In this document: piece by piece, positions 4,737 to 38,214 of the stretch
Position numbering within the stretch: position 1 is the stretch's first letter
Layout: the number at the start of each line of letters is the position of its first letter
Origin: Hadesarchaea archaeon
Lineage (GTDB): Archaea; Hadarchaeota; Hadarchaeia; Hadarchaeales; WYZ-LMO6
Assembly: GCA_029259185.1 (NCBI GenBank)
Contig: JAPDJF010000019.1
Span: 1-48,251 of the forward strand
Length of the DNA stretch: 48,251 bases
Reading direction: 5' to 3'
Made by a program: the position numbers and the translations under genes
The notes under the pieces: generated by a model
Database searches by the model: none
Told to the model about the DNA's origin: nothing
Seen by the model: the letters and a program-made list of their open reading frames with translations, nothing else

Positions 4737-5774
4737 ATGCCCGAACTGCGACTTTTGAGGGACAAAAAAGGCGTTTCACCCATGATCGCAGAGATCATTC
4801 TCATCGCGATAGTTTTCCTCATCGCTAGCGCGGTGATCGTGGTCCTCGGCCGAACCGAGGTCTCGGGGAAGAGCATAAACGTTACCCTCGGAGTCGACGG
4901 CTTCGTGCACGGGAGCAATCGGCTCACCATCACCTCGCTTGGGAAAGACGTGATCCCGGATGCTTTCCTGGTTGGCGAGGAAAGCTTTGAGTGGAAGAAC
5001 CTCATCGTAAAGAAGACCGGAAGGGAGGTCGAACCTCTCGACGCTCACTTCAACGGTCGCCCGGTCGCTGCCCTCTCCCACCTCATCTATGAAGATATGG
5101 AATCCCCGCCCCAGGGAACGCTCAAGGGAAACGCCGTTTACGACTCATCGAACAAATGGGTGAGGCTCACGGAAGCCCAGAACGATCTCAACGGCGAGCT
5201 TGAGTACGTCCTCAGCCCCCCTCCAGCGAGCTTCGTGGCGGAGTTCCAGTTCTGGAGTGGGGGCGGCACTGGGGCTGACGCGGTTTGGTTCTACGCGTAC
5301 TGCACGAGCACCCCCACCACCGAAGAAGTGGCGGCCGGAGGGTACCACTTCGTGTTCGATGAGTATAATGAAGACAATGAAATCCAGCTGTGGTACAACG
5401 GCATCTCCATTGAGAACGCGAGCCAGAGCAACCTCGATGATTCGAACTGGCACGACGCAAAGGTAGTCTTCGACGGGTACGCCATAGAGATATACTTTGA
5501 CAACGAGCTGAAGTTGAGGTATATGGACTTCGATGCCCCCTCACGCAAAAACGGCACCCTCTTCGGATGGGGTGCGCGAACGGGGGGGCTTAACAACGAA
5601 CACAGGATTAGATCGCTCAAGGTTAGAAGTATTCCCTTCCAACCTGTGGGGGTGGATTTCTCACCCGGGGACATACTGGAGTTCGAGTTCAAAGACCCGC
5701 TGGTCGTCGGTGATGCGATCACCATTCACTACGTTCCGGAGGAGAAGCTACTCTACATGAACGACATAAGTTGA
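4737..5774 (+). CDS. Type IV pilin-like protein with inserted L-type lectin/ConA-like domain
   Basis: Class III signal KKG|VSPMIAEIILIAIV. The pilin scaffold is split by a WVRLT...GADAVWFY...WHDAKV...FGWGARTGG..NEHRI domain. Confidence 0.8.
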   Translation: MPELRLLRDKKGVSPMIAEIILIAIVFLIASAVIVVLGRTEVSGKSINVTLGVDGFVHGSNRLTITSLGKDVIPDAFLVGEESFEWKNLIVKKTGREVEPLDAHFNGRPVAALSHLIYEDMESPPQGTLKGNAVYDSSNKWVRLTEAQNDLNGELEYVLSPPPASFVAEFQFWSGGGTGADAVWFYAYCTSTPTTEEVAAGGYHFVFDEYNEDNEIQLWYNGISIENASQSNLDDSNWHDAKVVFDGYAIEIYFDNELKLRYMDFDAPSRKNGTLFGWGARTGGLNNEHRIRSLKVRSIPFQPVGVDFSPGDILEFEFKDPLVVGDAITIHYVPEEKLLYMNDIS

Positions 5775-5812
5775 GGTGTTCCTGGAGAAAATCGAGCAGA
5801 AGTTCGGCTAAA

Positions 5813-5858
5813 CCTTTTTAAAGAAACAGACCTAACTTTAACAAAAAGGGAGGTTGAT
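5813..5858 (+). promoter_or_regulatory. TATA-like box and RBS of the candidate major pilin
   Basis: TTTTTAAA at about 5815-5822 and GGAGGTTGA at about 5849-5857 upstream of ATG 5864. Confidence 0.5.
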
Positions 5859-5863
5859 AGGGA

Positions 5864-6382
5864 ATGGATAGCAAGGGTGTGTCCCCAATGATTGCTACCA
5901 TAGTGCTGATAGCCATAGTGTTCGCGGTGGCTGCGATCCTGGCACTATCGTTGGCTTCAGCGCCTCAGCCGGAAGTTATCTTCGGAGGGCAACTTGCAAT
6001 GGAGAACATCGAGAACGGAAGAGATGTCATTACCATCAAGCACGTGTACGGTGATCGAGCTAACGACGCATTGAAAGCTGTCAAGGTAGGAGGAACTCAT
6101 CCTAATGAGACTGACAACTATTGGGACTGGAAAAACCTTGAACTTAGGATCAACGGAGTTGTGGTCTCCCATACCGCAGACCAAGGGATAATTCAAGTTA
6201 TATCGGAGGGGAAGATAGAGAATGTCAATAGCAGTGCTGTATATGATGGTGACACGATATCTCTGATAGTGGGTGACAAAATCGTGGTAAAGCTCTCCAG
6301 TCCGCTCACGATAGGGGACAAGGTATTGCTCAAGTGGGTTCCGAAGAACCAGAGCTTGGTGGAGAAAGAAGTCACGTTCTGA
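5864..6382 (+). CDS. Archaeal type IV pilin (candidate major pilin)
   Basis: MDSKG|VSPMIATIVLIAIVFAVAA canonical class III signal. It has its own promoter/RBS and a poly-T terminator. Confidence 0.85.
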   Translation: MDSKGVSPMIATIVLIAIVFAVAAILALSLASAPQPEVIFGGQLAMENIENGRDVITIKHVYGDRANDALKAVKVGGTHPNETDNYWDWKNLELRINGVVVSHTADQGIIQVISEGKIENVNSSAVYDGDTISLIVGDKIVVKLSSPLTIGDKVLLKWVPKNQSLVEKEVTF

Positions 6383-6390
6383 GGGGAAGC

Positions 6391-6420
6391 TTTTTTTTAC
6401 TTTTTACTTACTATTTTCTT
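6391..6420 (+). terminator. Oligo-T terminator after pilin
   Basis: TTTTTTTTACTTTTT immediately after the stop codon. Confidence 0.6.
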
Positions 6421-6496: not shown

Positions 6497-8368
6497 TTAA
6501 GTCACCTGCGGTTGAGGCAGGGAAATGAAGGAGGAGAGTGGGAGCACATCTATCCCGACGAACAGCAACCATCCCACAAAGCACATTATCACCGAGTGCT
6601 TGAGCCCATCCCTGATCCTCCCCGTCCTGAACTGCCCGGCGAGGATCCCCAAAAAGAAAGCCTGGATGAGAACGGCGTGGAAGAATATCCTCCTTATCAT
6701 CTCAGGGTCGATGGGTGCTATTCCTATCCCCACCCCTGCCGGCATTTCAACGTTCTGGGATGGAAGGGCCGGAATGAACACCGCCACCATCCCAACCGCT
6801 GTCATGGCGAATACCATGAATATCATGTAAGTGATCAGAACGTATGTGAAGGTTTGGGCCTTGCGCTCTCGCTTCAAAAATACCTCCGTTGAAACATCAT
6901 TGGCCAGAACGGACAGCACATCGCCTATTGCCGTCGTAGCCCTGCTGGCTATTTTCATCACCGAGGTTATCCTCATGAGCAATCCACTCTTAATCCTCCT
7001 TTCCATGTTCGAGAGGGCTTCCGAGGCTGGACTACCCCATTCTATGTCCCGTCTCACCTTGATGAGCTCTGGGGCGAGAGCACCGAAACGCTCCGGAGGG
7101 AGGGTCTTTATCGCTTTAGCTGGAGGGAGACCTGAGGAGACGGCGGCGGAAAGGGAGGAAAGATAATCCGGGGTTATGCTCACTATTTTGTCTATTCGCT
7201 TCTCCCTCCGCTCGTGCAGGATGATGAACGGAATGAGGGCTATGAGCAATGCAAAAACCAAAGTAGTTTCGATCTTAGGCTGCAACCCTATAAAAGTCTC
7301 GATGTTAAGTAAACCGGTTCCGAAGCGCAAAATCATGAACCCAACTGCTACGGGAACACTTGTCCAGAAAACCTTGATAGGTTCTTCGACTACCTCTTCC
7401 AAGAAACTCGATATCTTCCTCCGACCCTCTCCCCCAAAAAAACTCCCGATCTTTCCGAGCTGTAATTTCTCCCTACCGGGTGGCTCCACTTCTATTTTCC
7501 TCCTCCGCCTCGCCTCCCAGGGAGAGTACTGAGAGAGGATGAGGATGAAGGTCAAAGCCCCCACGGGAATGGCCACATAGGTGACCGCATAGAACACGAT
7601 CCCGGGCATGGGATTCATCATGTGCATGGGGATCAAAACAACTAGCAGGAGGAAGGGCATCAACCCCACCGAGATGGTGGAGATCTCAGCCATTATCGCT
7701 ACCGTCTCGAAAGATTTTATCTGGGCGTCCCTGGCCTCGAAATAAGCTTTATCACACCTCGTTGCGAGGAACTGACTCAGATCCGCCCCGGTCTCGACCA
7801 CCGTGGCTAAGGTCTTGAGGAACTCCCTGAACTTCTCCGAAGGAGTGGTCTCAGCAACGTCCATGATCGCCTCGACCGGTGATTCCCCGAACAACTCAAC
7901 GTTCCTGACCACCGCATTCGCTTCTTTGCATATCTCGCCGTAATCATCCTCATGCTGGCTCAGCTCCTTGAAGATGCGGATGATCCCAACCCCTCCCTTG
8001 CTAAGGGCAAGCATGAAAGCCAGTGCATGAGGTAACCTGGCCTCGATCTCCCTCTGCCTAGACTTGGCGGTGGATGATAGGTTCGCCAGACTGAGTGAAT
8101 AGAACCCATATCCCCCACCCAGACCGCCGAACACCGCGAGTAGCGGGTAAAGGGGGAGGTTGAACCTAGCCCCTAGGAAAAGGGTAACCCCAAACACCAT
8201 GAAGGCCGTGACGATAGACTGGGTTACAACCCCCGTGAGGAACTCGGTGACAGATCTGGGAACTCTCGCCATCCTCAGGTTCAATCGCACGGCTTTGAGT
8301 TTATCTTCCCCGACTCTCCGGAGAAAAAAATCGACTAAAAACATCTCAGCCTGCCTCAATTTTTTCAA
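6497..8368 (-). CDS. tadC: Type IV pilus assembly platform membrane protein (TadC/ArlJ, two T2SSF domains)
   Basis: Two T2SSF-like repeats (IEARLPHALAFM...TPSEKFREFL; PDYLSSLSAAVSSG...DIEWG) with TM blocks; coupled to the ATPase gene. Confidence 0.9.
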   Translation of the reverse strand: MKKLRQAEMFLVDFFLRRVGEDKLKAVRLNLRMARVPRSVTEFLTGVVTQSIVTAFMVFGVTLFLGARFNLPLYPLLAVFGGLGGGYGFYSLSLANLSSTAKSRQREIEARLPHALAFMLALSKGGVGIIRIFKELSQHEDDYGEICKEANAVVRNVELFGESPVEAIMDVAETTPSEKFREFLKTLATVVETGADLSQFLATRCDKAYFEARDAQIKSFETVAIMAEISTISVGLMPFLLLVVLIPMHMMNPMPGIVFYAVTYVAIPVGALTFILILSQYSPWEARRRRKIEVEPPGREKLQLGKIGSFFGGEGRRKISSFLEEVVEEPIKVFWTSVPVAVGFMILRFGTGLLNIETFIGLQPKIETTLVFALLIALIPFIILHERREKRIDKIVSITPDYLSSLSAAVSSGLPPAKAIKTLPPERFGALAPELIKVRRDIEWGSPASEALSNMERRIKSGLLMRITSVMKIASRATTAIGDVLSVLANDVSTEVFLKRERKAQTFTYVLITYMIFMVFAMTAVGMVAVFIPALPSQNVEMPAGVGIGIAPIDPEMIRRIFFHAVLIQAFFLGILAGQFRTGRIRDGLKHSVIMCFVGWLLFVGIDVLPLSSFISLPQPQVT

Positions 8369-10304
8369 TCACGCTCTGAGGATTGTAATAGTACTGCCTG
8401 AACATGCTGGCTATTTCTGCGGGGGTTATCCAAGCTTTATCGGCCATGTGCTGGAGGACCCTCTCCCTGTTCTTGAGTTCCTTTCTCAACTGGATGGGGT
8501 TCATCCCGGACCTCTTCCTGACCTCACGAAGGACCCACGACTCCTCCACCTTCCTGAAACTATCGGTTGGAGGATCCCACCTGAAGGTGTCCACTACCCG
8601 GATGTCCTCCGTGATGGGATCCAACCCTGCGAACTCCGTTATTTGAAGATTGCGCCTCACCCTCTCACTCCCGAGGTTCGTGAGGAGTTGCAAACACACG
8701 ATGTCAAGCTCCGCCAGCATTGGACGGGGTAGGTTGATCGGGTCCCCCTCCAGCCGGTTGACGGCCGCCTGCACCGACCCGGCATGCATTGTACAGAAAG
8801 CCGTGTGACCCGTACATATAGCTTGGAACATGGCCTGAGCCTCGACCCCCCTGACCTCCCCCACTATCAAACACTCCGGCCTCTGTCTCATCGCGATCTT
8901 CACCAGCTCGTTCATGTCGATCGGTCTTGAACCGATCGCCTCCCTAGTCACGTTCGGAACCCAGTTCTGCTGGTAGAGGGAGAGCTCCCTCGTGTCTTCG
9001 ATTGATATTATCTTAGCATCGGGAGGGATGAAAAACGCCAACGCGTTCAGGGTTGAGGTCTTCCCACTCGCTGTACCTCCTATTACCATCACGCTACTCC
9101 CGTATTCTATCGCGAGCCACAGATAGGCGAGCATCTCTGGGCTGAACGTATGGAACCTTATCAGATCTACTGGAGTGAAAACCTTACCAAGCCATTTCCT
9201 GATCGTGAAGGACGCTCCTCTAGCAGTCACCTCGCTACCAAAGGTTGCCTGTACCCTCGATCCATCGGGCAACCTCGCATCGATAACGGGCTCCGCAAAC
9301 GAGATGTGTTTTCCGCTACGCTCTGCGAGCAGGGAGTTGAAGCTGTCCAGCTCATCTGCACCGAACTGTATATTCGTCTCCATGTTGTAGTATCTCCTAT
9401 GATAGATGAAGATGGGAACCTCTGGACCGTCGCATGAGATGTCCTCGATCATGGGGTCTTTGAGGAGAGCGTCTATCTTACCAAACCCCAAGTTGTCCCG
9501 CCGGAGGATATAGAATATCCTGTAGATCGTTTTGAGGTCCGTTATCCCCAGCCTCTTCATCATCCCCACCATCTCCTTGGCTAGGATCTCTTCCTGCCTC
9601 ACCCCAGAAACTTCATATGGAAGTTTGTCCTTCAGTTCCCCCCAGAGCGTCCACCGCAATCTCTCCTCCTCAAAGGACAGCTTGGGTTCTACCACGTGAT
9701 ACCGGAGGTGTCCCGTCCCCTCCTCGCGGAGAATCACCACATAGGAAAACGGTCTTTCGATCCAGTACCGCTCCACCTCCACGTACCCTTTGGGAGGGGA
9801 GGTGAACTCCTCCAAACGACCGAACGTCCCCATGTCATAGGGAGGCACATCGGCTGCCGCCAGCTCGGGTGGAAGATCCTTCATGCTCTCTGGGATCGTC
9901 TCCGCCAAATGCTCGATACCTGTGGGGAAAGCAACCTGCTGCTCCAATCCCTCCAACATCTCCCTCTGTGCCCGATCCGCCATATCCCCCAACATTTTGA
10001 ACTCTGGATCCTCACCCTCCAGCAAGGGGGCTATCCTCAGTTCCTCGTCCTCCTCCGGTATGCTCCCCACCCTTTTCTCAGACTCGAAGAGCAAGCTCGC
10101 TGGCATCTCCTTTCCCTCCTCCTTCTGGAAGAGTTTTTCTTTCAACTTCTCAAACGGGTCGATCGTCACCGGAGTGGCCGATCCTCCACCCTCACCTTCA
10201 TCTTGACTGCTCTCCGGTTCTCCCCCACGCTCGGAAGAACGATCGGACATCTCCTCTTTTTCCTCATTTTCAGGAGGTGAATCGTCCCTTTCTTCCGGAT
10301 TCAT
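8346..10304 (-). CDS. Type IV pilus assembly ATPase (VirB11/TadA/ArlI family) with acidic N-terminal extension
   Basis: IEDISCDG, Walker A GGTASGKT, SIEDTREL, MRQRPECLIVGEVRG and TGH...TMHA motifs. Confidence 0.95.
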   Translation of the reverse strand: MNPEERDDSPPENEEKEEMSDRSSERGGEPESSQDEGEGGGSATPVTIDPFEKLKEKLFQKEEGKEMPASLLFESEKRVGSIPEEDEELRIAPLLEGEDPEFKMLGDMADRAQREMLEGLEQQVAFPTGIEHLAETIPESMKDLPPELAAADVPPYDMGTFGRLEEFTSPPKGYVEVERYWIERPFSYVVILREEGTGHLRYHVVEPKLSFEEERLRWTLWGELKDKLPYEVSGVRQEEILAKEMVGMMKRLGITDLKTIYRIFYILRRDNLGFGKIDALLKDPMIEDISCDGPEVPIFIYHRRYYNMETNIQFGADELDSFNSLLAERSGKHISFAEPVIDARLPDGSRVQATFGSEVTARGASFTIRKWLGKVFTPVDLIRFHTFSPEMLAYLWLAIEYGSSVMVIGGTASGKTSTLNALAFFIPPDAKIISIEDTRELSLYQQNWVPNVTREAIGSRPIDMNELVKIAMRQRPECLIVGEVRGVEAQAMFQAICTGHTAFCTMHAGSVQAAVNRLEGDPINLPRPMLAELDIVCLQLLTNLGSERVRRNLQITEFAGLDPITEDIRVVDTFRWDPPTDSFRKVEESWVLREVRKRSGMNPIQLRKELKNRERVLQHMADKAWITPAEIASMFRQYYYNPQSVIEKIEAG

Positions 10305-10396
10305 TCTAATAAACTAAACTCCGCTATGCACTTATAAACTTCTTTAATTCTGATTTTCTCCGAAATCGGCCAGAATTAGGGAAAAGTGGGGGTTTT

Positions 10397-11128
10397 TTAC
10401 CTCAATTCTTCGACTAGCTTACGAGCCAGAGCATCAAAAGCCTTTGAAACCGCTGATCGCGGCTTGTAGATGGTCACGGGTCTCTTGGCCACCACCGCGG
10501 CCTCGACGGATTTATCCTCAGGTATCACGCCTAACGCTTTGACCTTCAAGATCCCTTCGATCTCAGCTGTTCTGAGTTGCTTCGATCCGAAGAGTTTCCC
10601 CTTCTTCACCCGGTTCACGACCACCCCAACTATGCTCCTCTCCAATAGGATCACCACCTCCTTCGTGTTTGCCACATCGGAGACGGAGACGGGGTCAGGG
10701 GTGGTCACGAGCAGGACCCTGTCGGACTCTCTTAATGGAATGATTGAGTTCTTGTTTATGCCCGGCGGAGTGTCCACCAAGATGATATCGTAATCATCCT
10801 TTAGTGGAGTGAGGACGGTGGGTAGAAGGTCTAGCTTCGACTTCAGGTAACCACGCAAAGAAGGGCTGACCGGGAGGAGGGGGACTCCCAAGCTCAAGCT
10901 CACCGTTTCCCTCACCTCATCTTCACTCGGCCCGCCTTCGGTGGAGAGGAGTGCGTGCAAACTCCGAGAAGTGGACTTCCCCCCCATGTGAAGGGTGAGA
11001 TTTCCCGAAGAGAGGTCCGCATCCACGAGCAGAACTCTTGCACCTCTTTTGTTCAACACCACTCCCAGATTCGCGGCGATAGTCGTCTTTCCCACACCAC
11101 CTTTAGCTGACGCCACCGAAATTATCAT
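10397..11128 (-). CDS. minD: MinD/ParA-family ATPase
   Basis: Deviant Walker A KGGVGKTT, LVDAD, DTPPG, VVVNRV, IPED; upstream of and co-oriented with the pilus ATPase. Confidence 0.85.
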   Translation of the reverse strand: MIISVASAKGGVGKTTIAANLGVVLNKRGARVLLVDADLSSGNLTLHMGGKSTSRSLHALLSTEGGPSEDEVRETVSLSLGVPLLPVSPSLRGYLKSKLDLLPTVLTPLKDDYDIILVDTPPGINKNSIIPLRESDRVLLVTTPDPVSVSDVANTKEVVILLERSIVGVVVNRVKKGKLFGSKQLRTAEIEGILKVKALGVIPEDKSVEAAVVAKRPVTIYKPRSAVSKAFDALARKLVEELR

Positions 11129-11282
11129 TTTTGCCCGCTATTTTTTACGTATCCCACCATTTAAAGCATGAACCATTCCGCCGACGCGAACCTGTCGGAA
11201 CTCCGAAAGGATCTCCGACCAAACCGATGCACCGAACTCGAGTCCCACCAAACTTTTATGAGCCAAACTTCGAGTAAAATTG

Positions 11283-12080
11283 ATGCCCAAAATACCCACC
11301 GGGATAGAGGGACTTGACCTAGCACTCGGAGGGGGGGTACCCTCCGGCTCCCTCATCCTGCTACTCGGGGAATCCGGGGCGGGAAAGAGCGAGTTCGTTT
11401 ACACGGTAACGGCCAACTGCAACTCCATGAAGGAGGATCCCTCCCTGCTTCCAGAGGGTTTCGACTTAGTGCTCCCCGACAACATATGGTATGCGACCTT
11501 CGCTAGGAGTCAAGAGGGCGTGCTTCAAGACGTAAGGGGTAAATTCAGTGAGGATTTTTCGGAGAGGTTCACGAGAGGAACCCTGTTCAGAGAGTTCCTC
11601 ACCATCCCCGCACGCCTCAGCTCCTTTTCCGAATGGGTATCCGATTTGGTGAGCGATGGGGGACACGTGAAACTGCGGAGGGACATTTTCTCAACCCTCG
11701 CTAGATTCTTGGAGAGGGAGGGACCAAACAGCCTCGTGATCTTCCTGACCTTGACGGACATCGCCATGCTTTTCAAGAGAGGGGAGGAGATGGAATTCGT
11801 GAGTTTTCTGCAGAGCCTCAGGGAGATATGCAGGGGGTGGAACGCTACGGTTTTCGCCATACTCGCCACCGGAATCTTCGGCAAGGACGTGGAGGCCCTC
11901 TTGATCTCGAACGCCGATGGGGTGTTCCTATTCGAGACTCAAGGGGGAGAGGTGGCGAGGAGGAACATGTTCTCCTGCAAGAAGATGAGAGGTACGAACA
12001 TAACTCCTGAACCCTTCGAACTCACCATAGGGCCGGATGGGGTGGAACTCACCCGGGTGAGGACGCTGGCGGGACGCTAA
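11283..12080 (+). CDS. KaiC/RAD55/ArlH-like RecA-superfamily ATPase
   Basis: KIPTGIEGLD..GGGVP.GS, Walker A GESGAGKS, ADGVFLF, KKMRG; Walker B appears degenerate (LVIFLTLTD). Confidence 0.85.
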   Translation: MPKIPTGIEGLDLALGGGVPSGSLILLLGESGAGKSEFVYTVTANCNSMKEDPSLLPEGFDLVLPDNIWYATFARSQEGVLQDVRGKFSEDFSERFTRGTLFREFLTIPARLSSFSEWVSDLVSDGGHVKLRRDIFSTLARFLEREGPNSLVIFLTLTDIAMLFKRGEEMEFVSFLQSLREICRGWNATVFAILATGIFGKDVEALLISNADGVFLFETQGGEVARRNMFSCKKMRGTNITPEPFELTIGPDGVELTRVRTLAGR

Positions 12081-15233: not shown

Positions 15234-15296
15234 CCACGAGCCGAATTCGATCCGCGATCAGAAAACCCACAATTTCTTTAGCTTTGGAGGGGGAAT

Positions 15297-22715: not shown

Positions 22716-22725
22716 GATATCACCG

Positions 22726-28208: not shown

Positions 28209-28272
28209 GGATTGAGATGGCTGGGGTCCTTTATCTCTGGCTGCATGACCCGTCTTCAAGCGCGGTGGTTAA

Positions 28273-29046: not shown

Positions 29047-29050
29047 AGAG

Positions 29051-29860: not shown

Positions 29861-29937
29861 TTCACGATTTTCTCGGATCTAAGCGAACAAACTTGTACAC
29901 CACCAACCGTTTATTCTCTGATGCTGAGTTTTCTAAG

Positions 29938-30818: not shown

Positions 30819-30823
30819 CGGCT
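30558..30823. repeat. About 265-bp near-identical direct repeat, copy 1 (copy 2 at 37491-37756)
   Basis: Offset 6933, about 10 mismatches; extends 5 nt past the stop codon. Confidence 0.9.
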
Positions 30824-30899
30824 CCGGATGGCCAATCGTGATTGTTTGACGAACTTGGACCACTCAGCTTTTACCCATTCCCTCTAAACCTCCTTATAG

Positions 30900-32678
30900 A
30901 TGTCGGGACGCCTACCCAAATCGAGGCTGCTTGGAGAACTAAGAAAGAGAGGAGTCTCGGTGATGGTGAGTGTGGTGCTGATCATTTTGGTCCTCTTATT
31001 GGCCGGATCAGCTTTGATGGTACTTTACGGACGTATAAGCACGAGAAGTGCCGAAGCCAGCTTCATGAACTCCGTCGAGAAAAGTTTTCTCAAAATCCAA
31101 TCAGCTGTCTCTCAGCTGGAGGCTGGAGACTCGCTGAAAACAAAGCTAAAAATGAGTGCGGATAAACCTTTTCTCTCAGCTTGGGGCGGAAGGGCGGGTT
31201 CTCTCTTCGTTACATCTTCCAAGTTCACATACAAACGGACGATAACCATCACGAACCTGGCCGACTGGGACCTCTCGGAGTATCCAGTACGGATCTGGCT
31301 AACCGCTGACAACTTTGACTTCAGCAAGACCCGAAGCGATGGTGGGGATATAAGGTTTTACCAAAATGAACGTAGCTTGGATTACTGGATCGAGAAGTGG
31401 GACGCTACCAACGAGAATGCAGTCATCTGGGTTGAAGTCCTAAGCCTACCAGCGTCTGAAAACGAAAACATCGAAGTGTATTATGGTTACTCTGAGGCCC
31501 AAGGGACGAGTGATCCGAAAGCCGTCTGGCTGATATATGAGGATATGGACTCCGCTCCAGAGGGTGAGTTGAAGGGTGCTACCGAGTACAAAGAGGCGTG
31601 GAAGTGTGTAAGGCTGACCAAAAACATAACGAACGAAAACGGTGAGTTGGAATACCAGCCCAGTTTGGGGGACGGTTTCCTGGCCAAGTTCGAGCTGTGG
31701 GCGGGACTTATGACCGGATTCGCCAACGTCTACGATTCAGATGTGATAGAGGGTGCAGAGGCCACGTGGCTCTATGCCTACGACACGTCTACTCCAGCCT
31801 CTGAAAATGTAGCTGCAGGGGGGTACCACTTCGTGTTTGATGAATTCGAGGATGAGATCCAATTATACTGGAATGGATCCAAGATAGCTCAAGTTTCAAG
31901 AACGGATATAGACAACTTCGACTGGCATTCCGTTGAGATAAGACACTGGGAAAATCGCATCCAGATCTACTACGATGGGTCAAGGGTGATGGACTACACG
32001 GATACTACCCGAACCAAAACAGGACCACTATTCGGGTGGGGGGCCAGAACGAGCGAAGATACGAATGAACACAGGATTAGGAATCTCTACGTCAGAAAGT
32101 ACGTATATCCCGAGCCCTCGGCAAGTATAGGAGAAGAACAACTCGTGGGGAGGCACTACTTCGGACCTAGGAGCTTTGGAGTCATCGGAATCGAAACGCG
32201 GGGCTGGTTCTACCCCTGGAGGACGTTCGTGTATGAGGGTGGAGCTGTAATAGAGAACGAGTCTGGCACCTGCTACATGGTCTCTGAGCCCGTGCTCGTG
32301 TCGGTCCAAGACGCGGGAGGCGAGAACGTCGGGATAACCGTGAACTACGTGTTCGTCGACGGTTCTTATTCGCTCGTTTCAAGCGGGGAAAGAGAGATAA
32401 CCCTCACGTGCACTTCATCTGGCTACCGGGTAGCGCCTACGGAAGGGCCGAACCGAGAAAATGTGGTGATCGACCTGACCCACATGGTGAAGGCGGAACA
32501 CAGAGGAGTGTGGCGAGATTATTTGGCGAGGGTAAGAGACGAACTCAACGCCCAGGGGCTGAACGCCTCCCTCGACGGGCTCAAGCTCACGATCCTGGGA
32601 AAGGTCACGGGGGCGGGGACGAAGGACATCTACTACCGGGAGAAGATAACCGAGATCCGGGTCGAGTCCATTGTATAA
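30900..32678 (+). CDS. Pilin-like protein with inserted DUF2341-like and lectin domains
   Basis: KRG|VSVMV signal; YKRTITITN..DFSKTRSDGGDIRF..LDYWIEKW..IWV DUF2341-like segment; lectin domain homologous to that in 4737-5774; C-terminal scaffold shared with 35688 and 36509. Confidence 0.8.
   Translation: MSGRLPKSRLLGELRKRGVSVMVSVVLIILVLLLAGSALMVLYGRISTRSAEASFMNSVEKSFLKIQSAVSQLEAGDSLKTKLKMSADKPFLSAWGGRAGSLFVTSSKFTYKRTITITNLADWDLSEYPVRIWLTADNFDFSKTRSDGGDIRFYQNERSLDYWIEKWDATNENAVIWVEVLSLPASENENIEVYYGYSEAQGTSDPKAVWLIYEDMDSAPEGELKGATEYKEAWKCVRLTKNITNENGELEYQPSLGDGFLAKFELWAGLMTGFANVYDSDVIEGAEATWLYAYDTSTPASENVAAGGYHFVFDEFEDEIQLYWNGSKIAQVSRTDIDNFDWHSVEIRHWENRIQIYYDGSRVMDYTDTTRTKTGPLFGWGARTSEDTNEHRIRNLYVRKYVYPEPSASIGEEQLVGRHYFGPRSFGVIGIETRGWFYPWRTFVYEGGAVIENESGTCYMVSEPVLVSVQDAGGENVGITVNYVFVDGSYSLVSSGEREITLTCTSSGYRVAPTEGPNRENVVIDLTHMVKAEHRGVWRDYLARVRDELNAQGLNASLDGLKLTILGKVTGAGTKDIYYREKITEIRVESIV
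32529..32636. repeat. 108-bp near-identical direct repeat, copy 1 (copy 2 at 37181-37288)
   Basis: Offset 4652, 5 mismatches; encodes RVRDELNAQGLNASLDGLKLTILG(K/R)VTGAGTKDIYY. Confidence 0.9.
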
Positions 32679-32757: not shown

Positions 32758-35691
32758 ATGGGAACAAACAGAGGGCTCAGAGGGTGGAACTCAGTTTCCT
32801 TGATTCTAGCTCTTTTCCTCCTCCTCTCACTACTCCCACCCGTTTCAGCACCCTCCTGGACCGACACCACCAACCAAGATTTTTCCCAGGGGATCCATGA
32901 AAACACCGAAAACGTTAACGATGACGTGAGGCTCATCGCCGGTTACACTCAGGGCCGGTTCACCTCTAGAGTCCTCGATGCCGGGAAGACGGTCTGGAGC
33001 TGGGACACTCTCTCCTGGAGTCAAACCATCCCTAAAGTCAACGTGGAGAACGACAATGTGGGTACCGAACCCGATCCCCTCGTGGATGGAGAGTCGAGGA
33101 GAGGGGAGATCGTTGGAGGTTCGCTCCTTGACACGCGCGACAACGATGGGATCTACGAAAACGTTGCTGAAGAAAATGTAGGTATCTATACCTACGCGGG
33201 AGGTGAGACCGTATCCGAGGGCGGGACGAGTGGCATCTCGGGTGCACAGGCGGACGATGGGATCTACGAAAACCTGTATGAGAACGATTATGGTGGGCTC
33301 ATGTCGACTTTGTATAATTTTTCCTCTGGCGGAGGAACCGACAAGTGGTTCTACGATAGCGACGTAGGTGACGAAGGCGACCCTCCAGCCGATCCTTCAG
33401 ACGCTAGGTGGGAGGAGCAGACAGACTATGATTCAATTGCCAGTTCGGACGATGTTAGCCACACCTATACCATAGCGGCGAGTTCATTCAACAATCCCCA
33501 CACGATGTTTAAGTTCACAATTTCTGAGGATCCATCATCGATAGAGAACATCGAGTGGTCATGGGAAGGTCATGCTGGGGGCGATGCTATTGAAATCTTT
33601 GTATGGAACTCAACTACCGCTGCTTGGGAGTCTGTGGCCACCGATACAAGTGGCACGACCACAGATATTGTCCTCTCAGGGGCTATTACTGCGAGCGTTT
33701 CCGATTACATTGACGCAGATGGGTATTTCTATCTCTGTGCGATGAACGACTCAAACCGTGGGACGGATATTTCTACAGACTATGTTGAGGTCACTGTGAA
33801 CTACTCTGGAGTGGCATATCGGATGGATATCCAACACGACGTTACTGAAATCCCGAACGCAGATGATTATGAGCTTCAGATTGAGTACTACATCGATGGA
33901 GATACCGAGGCGGTCAGCGTCTACCTCTACAACTTCGCAACCACTGACTGGGACAACATCGGGGTCCTGACTTCCACCACTCTCGACAATTTCACATACA
34001 AGCTCACGGGCACAGACTACATCTCGGCAGGCGAGGTGAAAGTCAGATACGTCCAGCTGGATAACGACAGCACCCAAACTAGTCTTATGGTGGACTACTG
34101 CAGGGTTAAATCCGTTGTTTATGCTCTCCGCTGGGGACATCGAATCGAAAACGTTGCTGACAACTATGGGGCGTACGAGCTTACGATCAGGGGATACACG
34201 AGCGGGGACGGGGAGAACGTTGGGGTTTACATCTGGAACTCAACCACCTCGAGCTGGGAGTTCTTGGATAACTTAGATAACGCGGGAGTGAAAACGATTA
34301 CCAAACTTATCTGGGGGGCGGGCATCACGGACTATCTGGTGGGGGAAAACGTCCACATCAAATATGAGGATTACGACAACAGGGACAGCACCAAAACCAT
34401 CGTCCACATAGACCTCTGCATCATGCAAAACTGTAACACGCTCGCAGAGATAAAATTCCAAGTCGCCACGAGCGCTGACAACGTCAACTGGACTCCGTTC
34501 GTGGGTCCGGACAACACGTCTCAGACTTACTTCGAGGTTTCTCCCGCCAGCCTGGAGAACATAGGAGACAACCGCTACTTCAGGTATCGAGCATACTTCT
34601 CCAGTTCGAGCGAGGAGTACACGGGGGCAGACGGTCCCCTTCTCCACGATGTCACCATCGATTACACCCTCCCCCCTGAGGTCATGCCCACCATCACCAC
34701 CCTCGAAGCCAAGGGCATCCAGTGGGATTCCGCAGTATTGACGGCGAGGATAGGGTACGGAAGCTTGGACGAGCTGGAGGTGAGGTTCGCGTGGAGGAAG
34801 GCGGGTGCCACCGAGTGGAAATACACCCCATGGGAAACATGCTCGAGGAAGGAGTACGGCTACGAGCTCACGGGGCTCTCGGAAAACACCGGATACGAGT
34901 TCGAGGCCCAGACTAAGTTCGGAACCGGAGGGATCAGAACGTTCAGAACCCTCCCCGAGAACGCCAGGGCGACCACCCAAGAGGCGACCCTCGTGACCGA
35001 GAGTTCCGCCACCCTCAATGCATCGATTTATTACGGCAGATACGACAGCGTCACCATGCGGTTCTACTACAGGAAATCCGGAGGGGCATGGGAGAACACC
35101 CCCCCAGAGACTGTTACCTCGACCACCTATTCGAAGGAGGTGACCGGGCTTTCCAGCGGTTCGACCTACGAGTTCTACGCGTACATCGAGTTCAACGGGG
35201 GCAAAGACAACGACTATGCCGGCAGGAAGACCTTCACCACTTTCGATTCTTCAGCCGAGGGATTGAACTACGACGGACTCTCCAGCCGTATGCACGGCGA
35301 GGGCGGGTGGAACGGCATCCGCGCCACCCTGAGCGAGGTGAAGGGTTTCACCGCCCAGATACTCATCTCCAGACCATTCTACGGATGGATCACCCTCAGA
35401 GTTGTGGACGCGACGAATCCCACAGACCTCCTCCACCTCCAGAACATACGGTTCAACGGGGAGTGCCAGAAGCGGGTGACCCTAAGCTTCGAACAGGCAA
35501 TTTCGGGAGAGGTGTACGTGGAGATATACGACCCCTACGGCTACCACGCCGTTAGGAGGGGTTCGGGGTCCATCATGCCCGTGACGAAAGGGAAAGCGAC
35601 GTTCACAGAGTCCTACGCGCGCAGGGGAGGGGACGAGGTGGTGTTCACGGAAAGTGTGGTGGGGGTAAACGTGCTGGAGGTATTCACTTGA
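32758..35691 (+). CDS. Large secreted adhesin-like protein with jelly-roll-like domains and two FN3-like domains
   Basis: Sec signal (LLPPVSA|PSW); repeated V.V(Y/F)(I/L)(W/Y)N.TT..W(E/D) and DY/DL-C/V motifs; two LTGLS..T.YEF FN3 signatures. Confidence 0.8.
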   Translation: MGTNRGLRGWNSVSLILALFLLLSLLPPVSAPSWTDTTNQDFSQGIHENTENVNDDVRLIAGYTQGRFTSRVLDAGKTVWSWDTLSWSQTIPKVNVENDNVGTEPDPLVDGESRRGEIVGGSLLDTRDNDGIYENVAEENVGIYTYAGGETVSEGGTSGISGAQADDGIYENLYENDYGGLMSTLYNFSSGGGTDKWFYDSDVGDEGDPPADPSDARWEEQTDYDSIASSDDVSHTYTIAASSFNNPHTMFKFTISEDPSSIENIEWSWEGHAGGDAIEIFVWNSTTAAWESVATDTSGTTTDIVLSGAITASVSDYIDADGYFYLCAMNDSNRGTDISTDYVEVTVNYSGVAYRMDIQHDVTEIPNADDYELQIEYYIDGDTEAVSVYLYNFATTDWDNIGVLTSTTLDNFTYKLTGTDYISAGEVKVRYVQLDNDSTQTSLMVDYCRVKSVVYALRWGHRIENVADNYGAYELTIRGYTSGDGENVGVYIWNSTTSSWEFLDNLDNAGVKTITKLIWGAGITDYLVGENVHIKYEDYDNRDSTKTIVHIDLCIMQNCNTLAEIKFQVATSADNVNWTPFVGPDNTSQTYFEVSPASLENIGDNRYFRYRAYFSSSSEEYTGADGPLLHDVTIDYTLPPEVMPTITTLEAKGIQWDSAVLTARIGYGSLDELEVRFAWRKAGATEWKYTPWETCSRKEYGYELTGLSENTGYEFEAQTKFGTGGIRTFRTLPENARATTQEATLVTESSATLNASIYYGRYDSVTMRFYYRKSGGAWENTPPETVTSTTYSKEVTGLSSGSTYEFYAYIEFNGGKDNDYAGRKTFTTFDSSAEGLNYDGLSSRMHGEGGWNGIRATLSEVKGFTAQILISRPFYGWITLRVVDATNPTDLLHLQNIRFNGECQKRVTLSFEQAISGEVYVEIYDPYGYHAVRRGSGSIMPVTKGKATFTESYARRGGDEVVFTESVVGVNVLEVFT

Positions 35692-36506
35692 ACCTCCCAA
35701 ATCTCGGTGGGGCCGGGGTTTCGCCCATCTTCGGCATGGTGCTCGTTATAGGGATTTTTACGGGCCTGCTCGTGATCCTTTACTCCGCCTACTCGGCCGG
35801 GAGTTCGAAAACGGAGGAGGCTAAACTCCTAGCGTCGGTGGAGAAAGCGTTCATCCAGCTCAAGGAAGCTGTTGAGAGGATGGAAAACGGTGGTCACTTC
35901 TTGGTGGATATTAAGATGAACGCGGGTGGGTGGGCCGGAGGAACCCTCGCGGTTAAACCCCATGAGCCCCCGGGTGGAGATGCGTATGGGTGGCTGGAGT
36001 TCGTGTCCAAGAATTTGCAGCTAGGAGACCTCACCTTCATCTTCGAAGGGGGGGCGGTGATCGAAAACGGAAAGAACGGAATGGAGATGATCTCCCCCCC
36101 TGCGCTCATCACCATCAGCGAGGTGGAAGAGGAAAACGTCATCAGGTGGATAAGGCTCGACGTTCACCACATCCAGGTGGAGAACTACAGTTTCCAAATG
36201 GCCTCGAACCGCCCCAAGACGCTCAGGGTGGCGTGCACCTACGACAACTACCTGGTGTACCCCGAAACCGGAAGACCGAATAGGACCGAAGTAACCATAG
36301 ATCTCGGCTCGAGGGTAGCGACGGAAACGAGAGAAGTCTGGAAGTCTTATCTCGAGTCGTTGGTGACGACACTTCCGATGTACTATCGCGTCTCCTTGGA
36401 TCCCAGCTCGCTCACTCTTACCGTAAAGGGATTCAGGGAAAACAGCGACATCGCTGACATCTTTTACTACGAGAGACTCACCAAGATAACAATAGGGATG
36501 GGGTAG
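35688..36506 (+). CDS. Pilin-like protein (second scaffold type)
   Basis: GAG|VSPIFGMVLVI; FEGGAVIE, PNRTEVTIDL and DIFYYE shared with 30900 and 36509. Confidence 0.75.
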   Translation: MNLPNLGGAGVSPIFGMVLVIGIFTGLLVILYSAYSAGSSKTEEAKLLASVEKAFIQLKEAVERMENGGHFLVDIKMNAGGWAGGTLAVKPHEPPGGDAYGWLEFVSKNLQLGDLTFIFEGGAVIENGKNGMEMISPPALITISEVEEENVIRWIRLDVHHIQVENYSFQMASNRPKTLRVACTYDNYLVYPETGRPNRTEVTIDLGSRVATETREVWKSYLESLVTTLPMYYRVSLDPSSLTLTVKGFRENSDIADIFYYERLTKITIGMG

Positions 36507-36508
36507 GC

Positions 36509-37327
36509 TTGGTTGAAAGTGGACCTAGCGGGGGCGGAAGACAGGAGGGGGTGATCACCGTGGTGACGGCTGTGGTGCTGGTGGGTCTGGCCATCTTCGC
36601 CTTTTTCCTTTTCTATCCGCCGTATGTGGCATCCGAGACAAAAAAACTCGAAAAAGAACACATGGAGGGGGTAAGAGAGACTTTTCTTGACATCCAGCAA
36701 ATGGTGAGCCTGATGGGGGAGGGCGAATCCAAAAGCATCGAAATCCCGATGTATCCTCGATCGAGTTTCCTGATCCCTCCCTCGGGAAGTGCTGCCGGTA
36801 TTTCGATCACCGCCTCCGCTGGGGAGAAGTTCGGGGCACTCGCGTATCGGTTATCAAACACCTACTATCCGAACCAAACCTACGTGCTGGAAGGGGGTGG
36901 GGTGATCCTCGAACAGGGAGGGGTTGAGGTGATGACGTTCGACCCCAACTTGGTGTCCGGTCTGTATCTCGGCGATAACTACGCGAGGGTGGATGTGGAG
37001 GAGTGGTACGTTGTTGGGGAAAACGTGTGGATGTCGAAGACGGGTTCAACGGCCCTCACGATCTCATGCGTTGATGACGACTACGAGGTGTACACCGGGG
37101 ACTCCCCTAACGCCGAAAACGTGGTGGTGGATCTAACGGGAAAAGTCGAACACGAGAACGCGTGGACGGAGTATCTAACTAGGGTAAGAGACGAACTCAA
37201 TGCGCAGGGGCTGAACGCCTCCCTGGACGGGCTCAAGCTCACGATCCTGGGGAGGGTCACGGGGGCGGGGACGAAGGACATCTACTACTACAAACACGTT
37301 AAAAAGATCGAGATCTCGGTGAGGTGA
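36509..37327 (+). CDS. Pilin-like protein (second scaffold type)
   Basis: RQEG|VITVVTAVVLV; E.EHM..V..TF; YPNQTYVLEGGGVILEQ. Confidence 0.75.
   Translation: MVESGPSGGGRQEGVITVVTAVVLVGLAIFAFFLFYPPYVASETKKLEKEHMEGVRETFLDIQQMVSLMGEGESKSIEIPMYPRSSFLIPPSGSAAGISITASAGEKFGALAYRLSNTYYPNQTYVLEGGGVILEQGGVEVMTFDPNLVSGLYLGDNYARVDVEEWYVVGENVWMSKTGSTALTISCVDDDYEVYTGDSPNAENVVVDLTGKVEHENAWTEYLTRVRDELNAQGLNASLDGLKLTILGRVTGAGTKDIYYYKHVKKIEISVR
37181..37288. repeat. 108-bp near-identical direct repeat, copy 2
   Basis: Matches 32529-32636. Confidence 0.9.
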
Positions 37328-37331
37328 TCCA

Positions 37332-37751
37332 ACGAGGGAGCGAGGGGTATCCGTTTTGATCGCCGTCATCACCCTCATCCTCCTCACGATCTTAACAGCG
37401 GGGGCGGTGGTTCAGATGATGGGATCTAAAGCCCCGTCCTCCCCCATCTCCGCTGTTCTGAGGGTAGAAGAGAAGGAGAATAAACTCGTGATAACCCACC
37501 TCAGCGGGGACAAAATAGGGTACGCCTTCAAGCTCAACGACGGTGCGGTGCTCTGGCTGAACCTCGTGGTGAGGAAAAACGGAGAAAACCTGAACATCAC
37601 GGGCGGAGCGAGGGTCGGGGAGCTCACGGATGGGGTGATAAACTTCGGCACGGGGAGCAAGCTCGAACTCCCGGTAGGCGTGGAGAGCGGGGACGAGGTG
37701 AGCGTGGTGTACGTCCCCACGGGGCAGGTGTTGGTGGATGAGAAGTTCTGA
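37332..37751 (+). CDS. Type IV pilin-like protein, near-duplicate of 30393-30818 (non-canonical start)
   Basis: In-frame (ACG)RERG|VSVLIAVI signal lies upstream of the ORF-track TTG at 37356; GAGGTGA RBS precedes ACG 37332; in-frame stop at 37320. Confidence 0.75.
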   Translation, partial: TRERGVSVLIAVITLILLTILTAGAVVQMMGSKAPSSPISAVLRVEEKENKLVITHLSGDKIGYAFKLNDGAVLWLNLVVRKNGENLNITGGARVGELTDGVINFGTGSKLELPVGVESGDEVSVVYVPTGQVLVDEKF

Positions 37752-37756
37752 CGGCT
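37491..37756. repeat. About 265-bp near-identical direct repeat, copy 2
   Basis: Matches 30558-30823. Confidence 0.9.
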
Positions 37757-38214
37757 GGCGAGGAGTTTCGGTGATGGTGGCCATCATTACTCTGATGGGG
37801 CTCACCCTAGCCCTTGCCTCGGTGCTCACGCTCGCGCTGGGGAAGTGGGAGGTAAAGAACCCCACCCAAACCATGCTCACCCTCCGGATAGAGAATGAAA
37901 AACACGGGAAAGAGAATTTGATCCTCATCCACACGGGAGGAGATCCGATACCCGATGCGTTCGAGCTGAAGGGGGGAAAAATCACTTGGATGAATCTGGA
38001 GATCAGGGTAAACGGGGTGAAGCTTGAAGTTTGGGCCGATGCTATGCTCAATGGAGAGGAGAACGCCGGTGTGGTGAGGTTTTCACAAGGAGACGAACTC
38101 TCGATCCTTTTACCATGGGAGAACTCGGTGATTCGGGGGGACTGGCTTTCCGTGGTCTACAAACCGGCGGGACAAACACTCTTGCAAAGCCAGGTGTATT
38201 CACTCCGTGGGTAA
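37738..38214 (+). CDS. Type IV pilin-like protein
   Basis: WRG|VSVMVAIITL; LILIHTGGDPIPDAF..ITWMNLEIRVNG..FSQGD..GDWLSVVYKPAGQ. Confidence 0.8.
   Translation: MRSSDGWRGVSVMVAIITLMGLTLALASVLTLALGKWEVKNPTQTMLTLRIENEKHGKENLILIHTGGDPIPDAFELKGGKITWMNLEIRVNGVKLEVWADAMLNGEENAGVVRFSQGDELSILLPWENSVIRGDWLSVVYKPAGQTLLQSQVYSLRG

Follow-up and report, generated by a model that had tools for sequence, protein, structure and literature searches.

Type IV pili of the euryarchaeal kind, such as that of Haloferax volcanii (PilA, 8FJ5; PMC4858521), are encoded by PilB and TadC genes together with genes for MinD/FleN-like and KaiC-like ATPases and many class III pilins. Here we describe a locus with all of these features at positions 4737-38214 of a 48,251-bp contig from an uncultured hydrothermal-vent Hadarchaeales archaeon; the contig was analyzed whole and is called the window below. 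From its gene families, the locus is classed as an archaeal type IV pilus cluster of euryarchaeal style with PF07790 pilins. Interleaved with the pilus genes are genes for two radical S-adenosylmethionine (radical SAM) enzymes, a glycosyltransferase of family 2 (GT2), a flavoenzyme of the geranylgeranyl reductase (GGR) family, three UbiA-like proteins and three copies of an orphan membrane protein that we call mem. We refer to these genes as the kit. Unlike the described euryarchaeal systems, the locus also encodes two pilin-like proteins of ~600 aa, pilin611 and pilin654, that lack a named family and end in cysteine. A tentative reading, set out below, is that the kit serves to produce a prenyl lipid, saturate it and couple it to the terminal cysteines of these two proteins.

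The enzymes are best compared with the pairs formed by DGGGP synthase (DGGGPS) or chlorophyll synthase and a GGR (DGGGPL reductase, ChlP/BchP). UbiA2, one of the three UbiA-like proteins, and the GGR-family enzyme of the locus resemble these pairs in their motifs, in their best solved matches and in a logic of attaching a C20 chain and then saturating it. UbiA2 differs from DGGGPS and chlorophyll synthase in that it forms a separate clade, scores far under every equivalog cut-off and is always followed by mem.

For mem, a parallel can be drawn with Lgt and, by their description, AliA/AliB (PMC12462473): each is a polytopic membrane protein with conserved polar residues, and mem, like them, would lipidate an exported cysteine. 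Lgt and AliA/AliB act on an N-terminal lipobox cysteine, according to the parts of PMC12462473 that treat them, whereas the cysteine considered here is C-terminal, and no link between mem and Lgt was seen in sequence or fold. Eukaryotic CaaX and Rab CC/CXC prenylation resembles the locus in having a cysteine at the extreme C-terminus, here beside genes that handle geranylgeranyl groups. Yip1 proteins, which reappear below, bind doubly prenylated Rabs. The locus differs from the eukaryotic systems in having no CaaX box, a single terminal cysteine and exported substrates; moreover, neither a PF00432 prenyltransferase nor ICMT (PF04140) was found in the 95%-complete genome. Given the single-cysteine tails and the failure to find PF00432 and PF04140 in this 95%-complete genome, we rejected eukaryote-type protein prenylation for this locus. 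Finally, the proposed outcome, a surface protein that bears lipid at its C-terminus, is that of the archaeosortase/PGF-CTERM system. The PGF-CTERM signal is a C-terminal transmembrane helix that is removed by a sortase-like enzyme; the tails of pilin611 and pilin654 are, by contrast, short, polar or Gly-rich, and Cys-ended.

The pilus itself is of an ordinary type, and its combination with the kit was not found described. None of the terms UbiA, prenyl and radical SAM appears in the main text of either Makarova et al. 2016 (PMC4858521) or a 2026 survey of type IV filaments (PMC13705601), in line with an earlier note on this DNA that had called the gene combination unrecognized. Searches of the full-text literature returned nothing relevant on archaeal pili with UbiA or radical SAM enzymes, on Hadarchaeota pili or on archaeal protein prenylation, and a paper on chloroplast prenylation (PMC13533914) holds nothing on a system like this locus. 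According to PMC11297162, cultured Hadarchaeota grow on long-chain alkanes and Ca. Melinoarchaeum lacks PilA; the passages concerned are otherwise silent on such a system.

Prenyl and sugar transfer enzymes

All evidence is genomic and drawn from metagenome-assembled genomes, and the gene inventory is based on an open reading frame (ORF) listing and on Pfam and NCBIfam scans of the window proteins. Every class of gene that the earlier note had listed for 4737-38214 (pilins, TadC, ATPase, MinD, KaiC, radical SAM, GT2, GGR, UbiA and mem) was recovered. We use G000, G001 and so on for genomes (the window is contig C7 of the 1.27-Mb genome G000), C7, C39 and so on for contigs, L079, L083 and so on for other loci or contigs, and f1, f2 and so on for families.

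Three of the four UbiA matches in the genome lie in this stretch, and the fourth is a DGGGPS-like gene on C39. The protein with the clearest assignment is UbiA2 (27351-28208, +), which reaches 94.4 bits on PF01040 (cut-off 34.2) and carries both Asp-rich motifs, seen in the family alignment as NxxxDxxxD and KD...D within K/R-rich loops. UbiA1 (20783-21655, +; 26.6 bits) and UbiA3 (28979-29860, +, with a probable start at 29051; 21 bits) are divergent UbiA-like proteins under the same cut-off, so that the three UbiA prenyltransferases of the earlier note become one clear UbiA and two UbiA-like proteins. In the clade of UbiA1 and UbiA3, the N-D-x-x-D part of motif 1 is invariant. The solved chains nearest to UbiA2 are chlorophyll synthase (7e-18) and DGGGPS (4e-11). 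On the DGGGPS models, however, UbiA2 stays below equivalog level, with 65.6 bits on PRK12882 (cut-off 296) and 60 on PRK12884; the corresponding values of the C39 protein are 199.6 bits and 248 bits (cut-off of PRK12884, 269). A maximum-likelihood tree built from 16 sequences places UbiA2 and its relatives, including those of L083 and L084, in a clade of their own (support 97/96), joins UbiA1 and UbiA3 with a sequence of L079 from Aenigmatarchaeota (support 100/99) and sets the C39 gene apart on a long branch. Orthologues of UbiA2 with more than 50% identity occur in 5 of 66 genomes of the phylum, all of family f1.

The GGR-family flavoenzyme (19573-20703, +) scores 171.8 bits on TIGR02032 (cut-off 158.8) and reaches the cut-off of none of the equivalog models for DGGGPL reductase, ChlP and MenJ. 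Two other members of the family are encoded on C35 and C17, the latter with 188 bits on the DGGGPL-reductase model. As the genome holds the DGGGPS-like gene on C39 and the DGGGPL-reductase-like gene on C17, the UbiA and GGR enzymes of the locus appear to be spare paralogues and not the housekeeping copies. The DPM1/AglJ-like GT2 (15297-15983, +) matches PF00535 (95 bits), the AglJ model TIGR04182 (167.8 bits, cut-off 325) and a dolichyl-phosphate hexose transferase model (122.6 bits). It is the best AglJ/DPM1-like match in the genome (166 bits), with a second, weaker copy on C10. Grouping with housekeeping enzymes, which the earlier note had named as a point that would tell against its idea, is thus not seen in the UbiA tree or the GGR scores; the case is less clear for GT2.

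The orphan membrane protein

All three genome copies of mem, a membrane protein of ~240 aa, lie in this locus (3/3). They are paralogues without a Pfam or NCBIfam match; the earlier note had listed them as three copies of an unknown membrane protein. Each copy sits after an enzyme that handles polyprenyl substrates: memA (15980-16759, +) follows GT2 and overlaps its stop, memB (21736-22464, +) follows UbiA1, and memC (28273-29046, +) follows UbiA2. UbiA2, memC and UbiA3 also succeed one another in this order in G001, G003 and L077. Over 263 nt memA and memB are 90% identical, with a 134-nt core at 100%. The codon of memA that aligns with the ATG of memB is a CTG (15980-15982) overlapping the TGA stop of GT2 (15981-15983). 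No ATG, GTG or TTG is present at the conserved N-terminus (15977-15986), which together with the overlap suggests that memA has a non-canonical start or is coupled to GT2. In G000, G002, G003 and G012, memB is convergent with pilin654 or its orthologue, which it adjoins in G005.

The family is small. Relatives amount to 12 clusters in a word-index search and to 10 proteins, all without family labels, in a full HMMER profile search of 1.84 billion representatives, and mem was identified in 7 of the 41 genomes searched (G000-G005 and G012). A locus search with the single memB sequence returned only 27-residue matches in Pedobacter, which we attribute to chance and discarded. The AlphaFold2 (AF2) model, made for memB, has six long helices (pLDDT 87.7). 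Foldseek found no match to it in the PDB at E<=1e-3, and the best hit of a wide VIA-align search (Z 6.7) is within the noise for helical proteins. No likeness to GtrA, to any flippase or to Lgt was detectable by sequence or fold comparison. The nearest neighbours in a protein language model are bacterial Yip1-domain clusters (scores 0.90-0.91); since hidden Markov models do not confirm it (Yip1, PF04893, is found in 0 of 12 members even at E up to 10), this likeness is a lead only. By a rough positive-inside count, the N-terminus of mem would be cytoplasmic, and the model would then place an invariant stretch, H46...Y50-P51...W65-H67-G71-G72, roughly at the outer ends of helices 1 and 2.

Conservation of the linkage

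Linkage of the enzymes to pilins in related genomes, on which the earlier note had made its idea depend, is found in the sister genus. When all window proteins were compared by tblastn with stretches of G001 and G003, both genomes proved to share the interleaved order at ~45-70% protein identity, namely TadC-PilB-MinD-KaiC-rSAM-pilin3-GT2-memA-PQQ-...-GGR-...-pilin654-pilin611-UbiA3-memC-UbiA2-pilins (rSAM, radical SAM), and short contigs of G002, G004 and G005 hold matching pieces. In G001 and G003, a single strand carries UbiA2-memC-UbiA3-pilin611-pilin654, and the genes are 0-90 nt apart. The window has the triad UbiA2-memC-UbiA3 inverted, so that it heads eight pilin-like genes (pilin167 to pilin158) with gaps of -14 to 82 nt. 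In both arrangements, the triad has a set of pilin genes on either side, one of which runs in the same direction as the triad. The content of the locus varies. In G003, a single radical SAM gene accompanies pilin3, UbiA1-like and GGR genes are present twice each, and a third radical SAM gene lies at a distance, ahead of memB. In a second family (f5), a 3.1-kb contig (C45) of G012 carries GGR, memB and pilin654 as adjacent genes.

Part of the kit recurs outside these genomes, on two short metagenomic contigs that are unrelated to each other. L083 (GC content 29%) encodes a secreted alpha/alpha-toroid-like protein, a UbiA2-like protein (46% identity), mem and a secreted protein. On L084 (GC content 46%) the genes for a GGR-like protein, a UbiA2-like protein (35% identity) and mem abut or overlap one another and are followed by a gene for a secreted Ig/MG2-like protein. 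The secreted proteins downstream of mem on the two contigs are homologous. Scans with smaller alignments gave L083 and L084 only, and full-length relatives of the L084 secreted protein were absent among proteins of 502-2000 aa. [GGR]-UbiA2-mem, which stands beside secreted proteins in three lineages, is thus a module of its own, with a real chance of being new as such. A GGR-family reductase, UbiA2 (of its own clade) and mem form the core of the membrane-bound accessory kit, which the pilus locus has probably taken up in one family of Hadarchaeales.

Large pilin-like proteins with a terminal cysteine

The two large pilin-like proteins are paralogues. Pilin654 (22726-24690, -) has a Pilin_N match and ends in ...GSACG, and pilin611 (25434-27269, -; N-terminus KKVGVSPMLATILL) ends in ...PPGGEEGGC. 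Foldseek pairs the predicted N-terminal domain of pilin654 with 8FJ5, the pilin of H. volcanii, at a probability of 1.00. The AF2 model of the whole protein is weak (pLDDT 61.8); structural matches were found for the pilin domain alone, and an Atlas search with the C-terminal region gave no usable match. The C-terminal domain family of pilin654 occurs in 6 of 66 genomes of the phylum (G000, G001, G002, G003, G005 and G012). This is the set of genomes with mem, except for G004, which has mem only.

When both proteins are aligned with their orthologues, the cysteine at the very end stands out as one invariant column. It is found at the C-terminal end in 10 of 10 distinct pilin654 and pilin611 proteins from six genomes (one duplicate was counted once), a count that is not independent because the orthologues are related. 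In nine of these proteins the cysteine is the last residue, and in the pilin654 of the window it is the penultimate one. The two groups are only 25-31% identical, yet the terminal cysteine is common to both. All four pilin611 orthologues have a Gly-rich tail before it, PPGG(S/E)G(n)GGC; those of pilin654 have a short tail with the cysteine last, the tail in G005 having masked letters right before it. A cysteine within the last two residues occurs in 27 of 1108 non-overlapping ORFs of at least 120 aa in G000, and just two of the 27, pilin654 and pilin611, begin with a strongly hydrophobic segment. A terminal cysteine is absent from all 40 other window proteins that were checked. The terminal cysteine of pilin654 and pilin611 is, on these sequences, a concrete candidate target for pilin lipidation.

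The 743 nt between the two genes (24691-25433) contain only short ORFs, without family matches. This region carries many small indels in other strains and is therefore probably non-coding.

Radical SAM pair and pilin3

Radical SAM 1 (12077-13408, -; class-B-like, 443 aa; PF04055 63 bits, with CxxxCxxC) and its paralogue radical SAM 2 (13405-14733, -; 442 aa; PF04055 60 bits) form an operon led by a small pilin, pilin3 (14730-15233, -; start probably internal to the ORF). Successive 4-nt overlaps join the three genes, which bears out the coupling of two radical SAM genes behind a pilin described by the earlier note. The two enzymes are 58% identical overall, with a 300-nt tract at 96%, and the cysteines of CxxxCxxC (C174, C178 and C181) are invariant in all seven sequences compared. 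Both radical SAM genes of this type in the genome are in this locus, and the pair has orthologues in 6 of the 66 genomes of the phylum, every one from f1.

Sub-threshold NCBIfam matches include BchE, HpnJ, PhpK, HpnR, a ladderane-lipid family and TIGR04014, and a cobalamin domain is indicated by a sub-threshold match to TIGR04013 over residues ~65-189. The Pfam B12-binding domain (PF02310) has no match in these proteins at E<=0.01. The label "B12-radical SAM" of the earlier note is thus borne out for the radical SAM core, and its B12 part comes solely from the sub-threshold NCBIfam matches. A phmmer search of all PDB chains with radical SAM 1 gave no match at E<=1e-3. A search of solved chains with the family profile lists QCMT, TokK and CysS, the nearest being 9CCB (QCMT; E=4e-8, 35 bits). 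We take 9CCB to be the B12 radical SAM glutamine C-methyltransferase of methyl-coenzyme M reductase, which agrees with the TIGR04014 match.

Orthologues of pilin3 start with M(V/G)FP(S/G)ISPT and carry an N-x-T sequon at the same place (4/4). The window pilin3 has five cysteines, as against none in most small pilins, and the extra cysteines are not conserved in its orthologues.

Possible function of the kit

The gene content, the conserved linkage, the paralogue status of the enzymes, the recurrence of [GGR]-UbiA2-mem and the conserved terminal cysteine are the observations that a functional reading has to accommodate. Lipidation of pilin654 and pilin611, which we consider possible and somewhat short of probable, would proceed as follows. 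At the cytoplasmic face, UbiA2 would put a C20-type prenyl chain on an acceptor, and the GGR paralogue would saturate the chain. The cluster of His, Tyr and Trp residues of mem, near the outer leaflet, would hand the lipid to the outside or transfer it. This step is needed because known UbiA enzymes work at the cytoplasmic face and the terminal cysteine is exported. The recipients would be the terminal cysteines of pilin654 and pilin611, set on a flexible Gly-rich tail in one of the two groups, and the product would be a thioether-lipidated surface protein associated with the pilus, either anchored at both ends or lipid-tipped. GT2 and memA might form a parallel arm that supplies a polyprenyl-phosphate hexose. 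UbiA1, UbiA3 and the radical SAM pair might tailor the lipid, although the radical SAM pair might alternatively act on pilin3.

Archaeal pilins are known to be glycosylated, and we know of no report of a pilin with a covalent lipid. If the kit lipidates the Cys-ended pilins, this would be a new route of protein lipidation in its enzymes, its site and its topology; it would give a UbiA enzyme a protein-directed role and the orphan mem family a first function. A broader claim is that UbiA2, GGR and mem put a saturated C20 isoprenoid on a C-terminal cysteine of exported pilin-like proteins as a prokaryotic, UbiA-based lipidation system that belongs to a wider, unrecognized family. We regard this as unlikely. 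Were it true, pilus proteins with a lipid tip or a second anchor might bring the cell into touch with hydrophobic substrates or with the membranes of partners (relatives degrade alkanes), and the recurrence of the three genes next to those for secreted proteins in two further lineages would mark a wider family for lipidation of surface proteins. Under milder readings too, the pairing of each polyprenyl-handling enzyme with a mem paralogue offers a clear experimental target. That ~10 kb of a 1.27-Mb genome are spent on the kit suggests that it matters for the cell surface.

Several points weigh against lipidation of the pilins. We infer every chemical step of it. Known UbiA enzymes have small-molecule or lipid acceptors at the cytoplasmic face, and we know of no UbiA enzyme that prenylates a protein. 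The third Asp of motif 1 is missing in UbiA1 and UbiA3, and their motif 2 is poorly kept. The terminal cysteine could instead serve in a disulfide or in metal binding. G001 lacks memB and UbiA1. The kit is limited to one family (two genera, six genomes) and one fragment in a second family, and the positive genomes are not independent because all but G012 belong to one family. Neither kit genes nor large pilins were found, at more than 55 bits, in any of eight pilus loci of families f2, f4 and f5, fetched with up to ~20 kb on each side and in some cases ended by contig ends. These loci encode PilB and TadC in 8/8, a MinD-like protein in 7/8, a KaiC-like protein in 5/8 and pilin-like proteins in 5/8. 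As the kit is absent from them, it is an add-on to an older pilus locus, and the pilus does not need it. On L083 and L084 the secreted proteins run into contig ends before their C-terminus. Lastly, L079, the closest outside relative of UbiA1 and UbiA3, has no pilins in a 20.8-kb locus (10 kb on each side). Its genes at 9962-14450 encode a UbiA, a UbiE-like methyltransferase, a B12-binding radical SAM protein and a second radical SAM protein with an HMPTM-type zinc ribbon, with two GT4 genes nearby, and may belong to a pathway for a prenylated small molecule or lipid. The dedicated prenylated or glycosylated lipid or tag proposed by the earlier note is thus favoured by the linkage, by the paralogue status of the enzymes and by the terminal cysteine as a candidate site, and is disfavoured by the narrow occurrence of the kit and by the pilin-free L079.

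The kit might instead form a carrier-lipid and glycosylation pathway, in which GGR and the UbiA-like proteins make or trim a polyprenyl phosphate carrier, GT2 loads it with hexose, mem flips the products and the sugars reach the pilins via AglB or another transferase, the radical SAM pair methylating the sugar or the carrier. In Haloferax, dolichol is a substrate of GGR paralogues, which reduce it, and GtrA/GtrB offers a parallel as a pair of GT2 and flippase. This pathway would accommodate the GT2, which is the best AglJ/DPM1-like match and is apparently translationally coupled to memA, as well as the position of every mem copy after an enzyme with a polyprenyl substrate. An AglB (STT3) gene is present on contig C4, outside the window. 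N-x-S/T sequons are richer in the secreted proteins of the locus (36 in ~5600 aa) than in other window proteins (2.7 per 1000), and that of pilin3 is kept in all four orthologues. Glycosylation leaves the invariant terminal cysteine unexplained, however; the pair UbiA2-mem recurs without GT2 on L083 and L084, mem has no detectable likeness to GtrA or any flippase, and UbiA enzymes are not, to our knowledge, parts of archaeal N-glycosylation. On balance, we find it doubtful.

Nor does the neighbourhood have to mean a shared function. The kit could be a lineage-specific island for lipid tailoring that has hitch-hiked in a fast-evolving, recombination-prone pilus locus and acts on bulk membrane lipids. 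Its absence from all eight related pilus loci, the varying content (the extra genes of G003 and the lack of UbiA1 and memB in G001), the many gene-conversion tracts of the locus and the pilin-free relative on L079 would fit such an origin, and the families of class-B radical SAM, UbiA and GGR proteins include membrane-lipid enzymes among the named NCBIfam matches. We nevertheless judge hitch-hiking quite improbable, since two genera share the interleaved order, and in both arrangements the distances to pilin genes are operon-like, GGR, mem and pilin654 are adjacent in a second family, mem and the Cys-ended large pilins occur in nearly the same genomes, and the module stands beside secreted proteins in two other lineages. 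A narrower proposal, compatible with any of the others, takes the radical SAM pair as a maturase like those of ribosomally synthesized and post-translationally modified peptides, for example one that C-methylates pilin3 independently of the prenyl enzymes. The order pilin3-rSAM2-rSAM1 with its 4-nt overlaps, kept in G001, G002 and G003, the match to 9CCB as nearest solved chain and the atypically Cys-rich pilin3 of the window speak for it. That match is weak and covers the shared radical SAM core only, though; the other sub-threshold matches are to lipid and tetrapyrrole enzymes (HpnJ, HpnR, BchE and the ladderane-lipid family), the extra cysteines are not kept, and radical SAM enzymes reside in the cytoplasm, while pilins have their globular part exported. 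Such a maturase seems to us very improbable.

Pilus core

The genes for the pilus core adjoin those of the radical SAM pair. The TadC/ArlJ-like platform protein (6497-8368, -) matches T2SSF (PF00482) over two stretches (87.7 bits, E=8e-25), with sub-threshold matches to ArlJ and UpsF. TadC relatives at E<=1e-20 were identified in 26 of 66 genomes of the phylum. The PilB/ArlI-like secretion ATPase (8346-10304, -) has T2SSE (PF00437, 98 bits), PilB3_N and PilB3_C, and reaches 361 bits on the FlaI model, under its cut-off of 550. Also present are a MinD/FleN-like ATPase (10397-11128, -; ParA and CbiA families; minD_arch 192 bits against a cut-off of 201.75) and a KaiC/ArlH-like ATPase (11280-12080, +) that matches the KaiC ATPase family in its N-terminal part only (E=1.7e-12), with sub-threshold matches to ArlH and FlaH. 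A class III signal peptidase (peptidase A24; PF01478, 58.5 bits) is encoded on contig C13, outside the window.

A second, distant TadC/PilB pair lies ~12 kb from the main locus in two of the other genomes: on L016/L017 (G001:C1) at ~24.8-32.6 kb and on L013 (G003:C9) at ~1-8.7 kb. Its PilB-like matches come in three separate pieces (residues 239-438, 458-502 and 489-643) over ~5.6 kb, a pattern compatible with an ATPase gene that is interrupted by insertions such as inteins.

Pilin-like and secreted proteins

Thirteen ORFs have a class-III-like N-terminus, that is, a [KRE][GSE]-[VIL]-S/T-P/V motif followed by a hydrophobic helix, in agreement with the 13 pilin-like genes of the earlier note. 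Their starts are 4737, 5864, 14730, 16706, 22726, 25434, 29893, 30393, 30900, 35688, 36509, 37356 and 37738. With a predicted class III signal and a hydrophobic helix, all 13 qualify as predicted filament subunits. Six match Pilin_N (PF07790) at E<0.01, and six of the eight PF07790 matches in the whole genome are within the locus.

At the left end, a 345-aa pilin-like protein with a lectin/LamG-like domain (4737-5774, +; N-terminus KGVSPMIAEIIL) has weak matches to Pilin_N, Laminin_G_3 and a lectin family. It is followed by a small PF07790 pilin of 172 aa (5864-6382, +) that matches Pilin_N above cut-off (27.3 bits) and TIGR02537, with orthologues in G001 and G003 at 59-62% identity. A protein with a PQQ-type beta-propeller (16706-18133, -; PQQ_2 374 bits) has a class-III-like N-terminus, HEISPTAGALVIVVL, and a pilin-like C-terminal domain, its last ~80 aa aligning with small pilins. 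Next to it are genes for two proteins without family: a secreted or anchored one of 279 aa (18162-19001, +), which has a hydrophobic N-terminus and orthologues at the same place in G001 and G003, and a secreted one of 162 aa (19033-19521, -).

The series of pilin-like genes behind the UbiA2-memC-UbiA3 triad begins with a small pilin of 167 aa (29893-30396, +; N-terminus VGLTPMIATIVL), for which orthologues were found, and the PF07790 pilin pilin141 of 141 aa (30393-30818, +; Pilin_N E=8e-5). A DUF2341 pilin-like protein of 592 aa (30900-32678, +; DUF2341 72.7 bits; N-terminus KRGVSVMVSVVL) comes before the secreted protein of 977 aa (32758-35691, +) that the earlier note had called an adhesin. 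This protein exists and has a Sec-like signal, but it matches no Pfam or NCBIfam family; homologous pieces are present in the pilus loci of G006 and G017. Also encoded are a DUF7289 pilin-like protein (35688-36506, +; 28.1 bits; N-terminus AGVSPIFGMVL) and pil272 (36509-37327, +), a pilin-like protein of 272 aa with a class-III-like N-terminus, which is a paralogue of the DUF7289 protein and of the C-terminus of the DUF2341 protein. A tract at 90% nucleotide identity is common to pil272 and the DUF2341 protein in their C-terminal parts. The small pilin pilin131 (37356-37751, +) matches Pilin_N and is a recent copy of pilin141 (30393-30818), with which it shares a 300-nt tract at 88%. Its upstream frame reads through the class-III-like signal RERGVSVLIAV, and no canonical start is found between the preceding stop and the signal (37320-37360). 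Pilin131 may thus be a decaying recent duplicate of pilin141 or a user of an unusual start. The last gene of the series encodes a PF07790 pilin of 158 aa (37738-38214, +; Pilin_N E=4e-5).

Assembly and flanking regions

The DNA runs that contain the stretch are labelled as hydrothermal vent metagenomes; no RNA run was listed for 19501-29500. Gene-conversion-like tracts between paralogues were identified at 12963-13262/14294-14593, 15981-16243/21737-21999/28294-28427, 30499-30798/37432-37731 and 32510-32636/37162-37288. Contigs from four public DNA runs that were aligned on 11001-31000 stop exactly at internal repeat tracts. In a second sample (X4), contigs with strain-level differences cover 16137-21778 and 21893-28341; these span and support the assembly between the internal repeats, the repeats themselves being unbridged. 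The order across the repeats is based on the original assembly and on synteny.

The flanks of the locus (186-4671 and 38200-48099) carry genes for fatty-acid and lipid metabolism. They encode an MFS transporter, two proteins with SCP2 lipid-transfer domains, two AMP-binding acyl-CoA-synthetase-like proteins, a MacB/FtsX-ABC pair, a nitroreductase, an enoyl-CoA hydratase and a 3-hydroxyacyl-CoA dehydrogenase. Directly past the last pilin is the gene for a 528-aa protein without family match (38200-39786, -), which is present as two tandem copies at the same position in G001 (53% and 58% identity).

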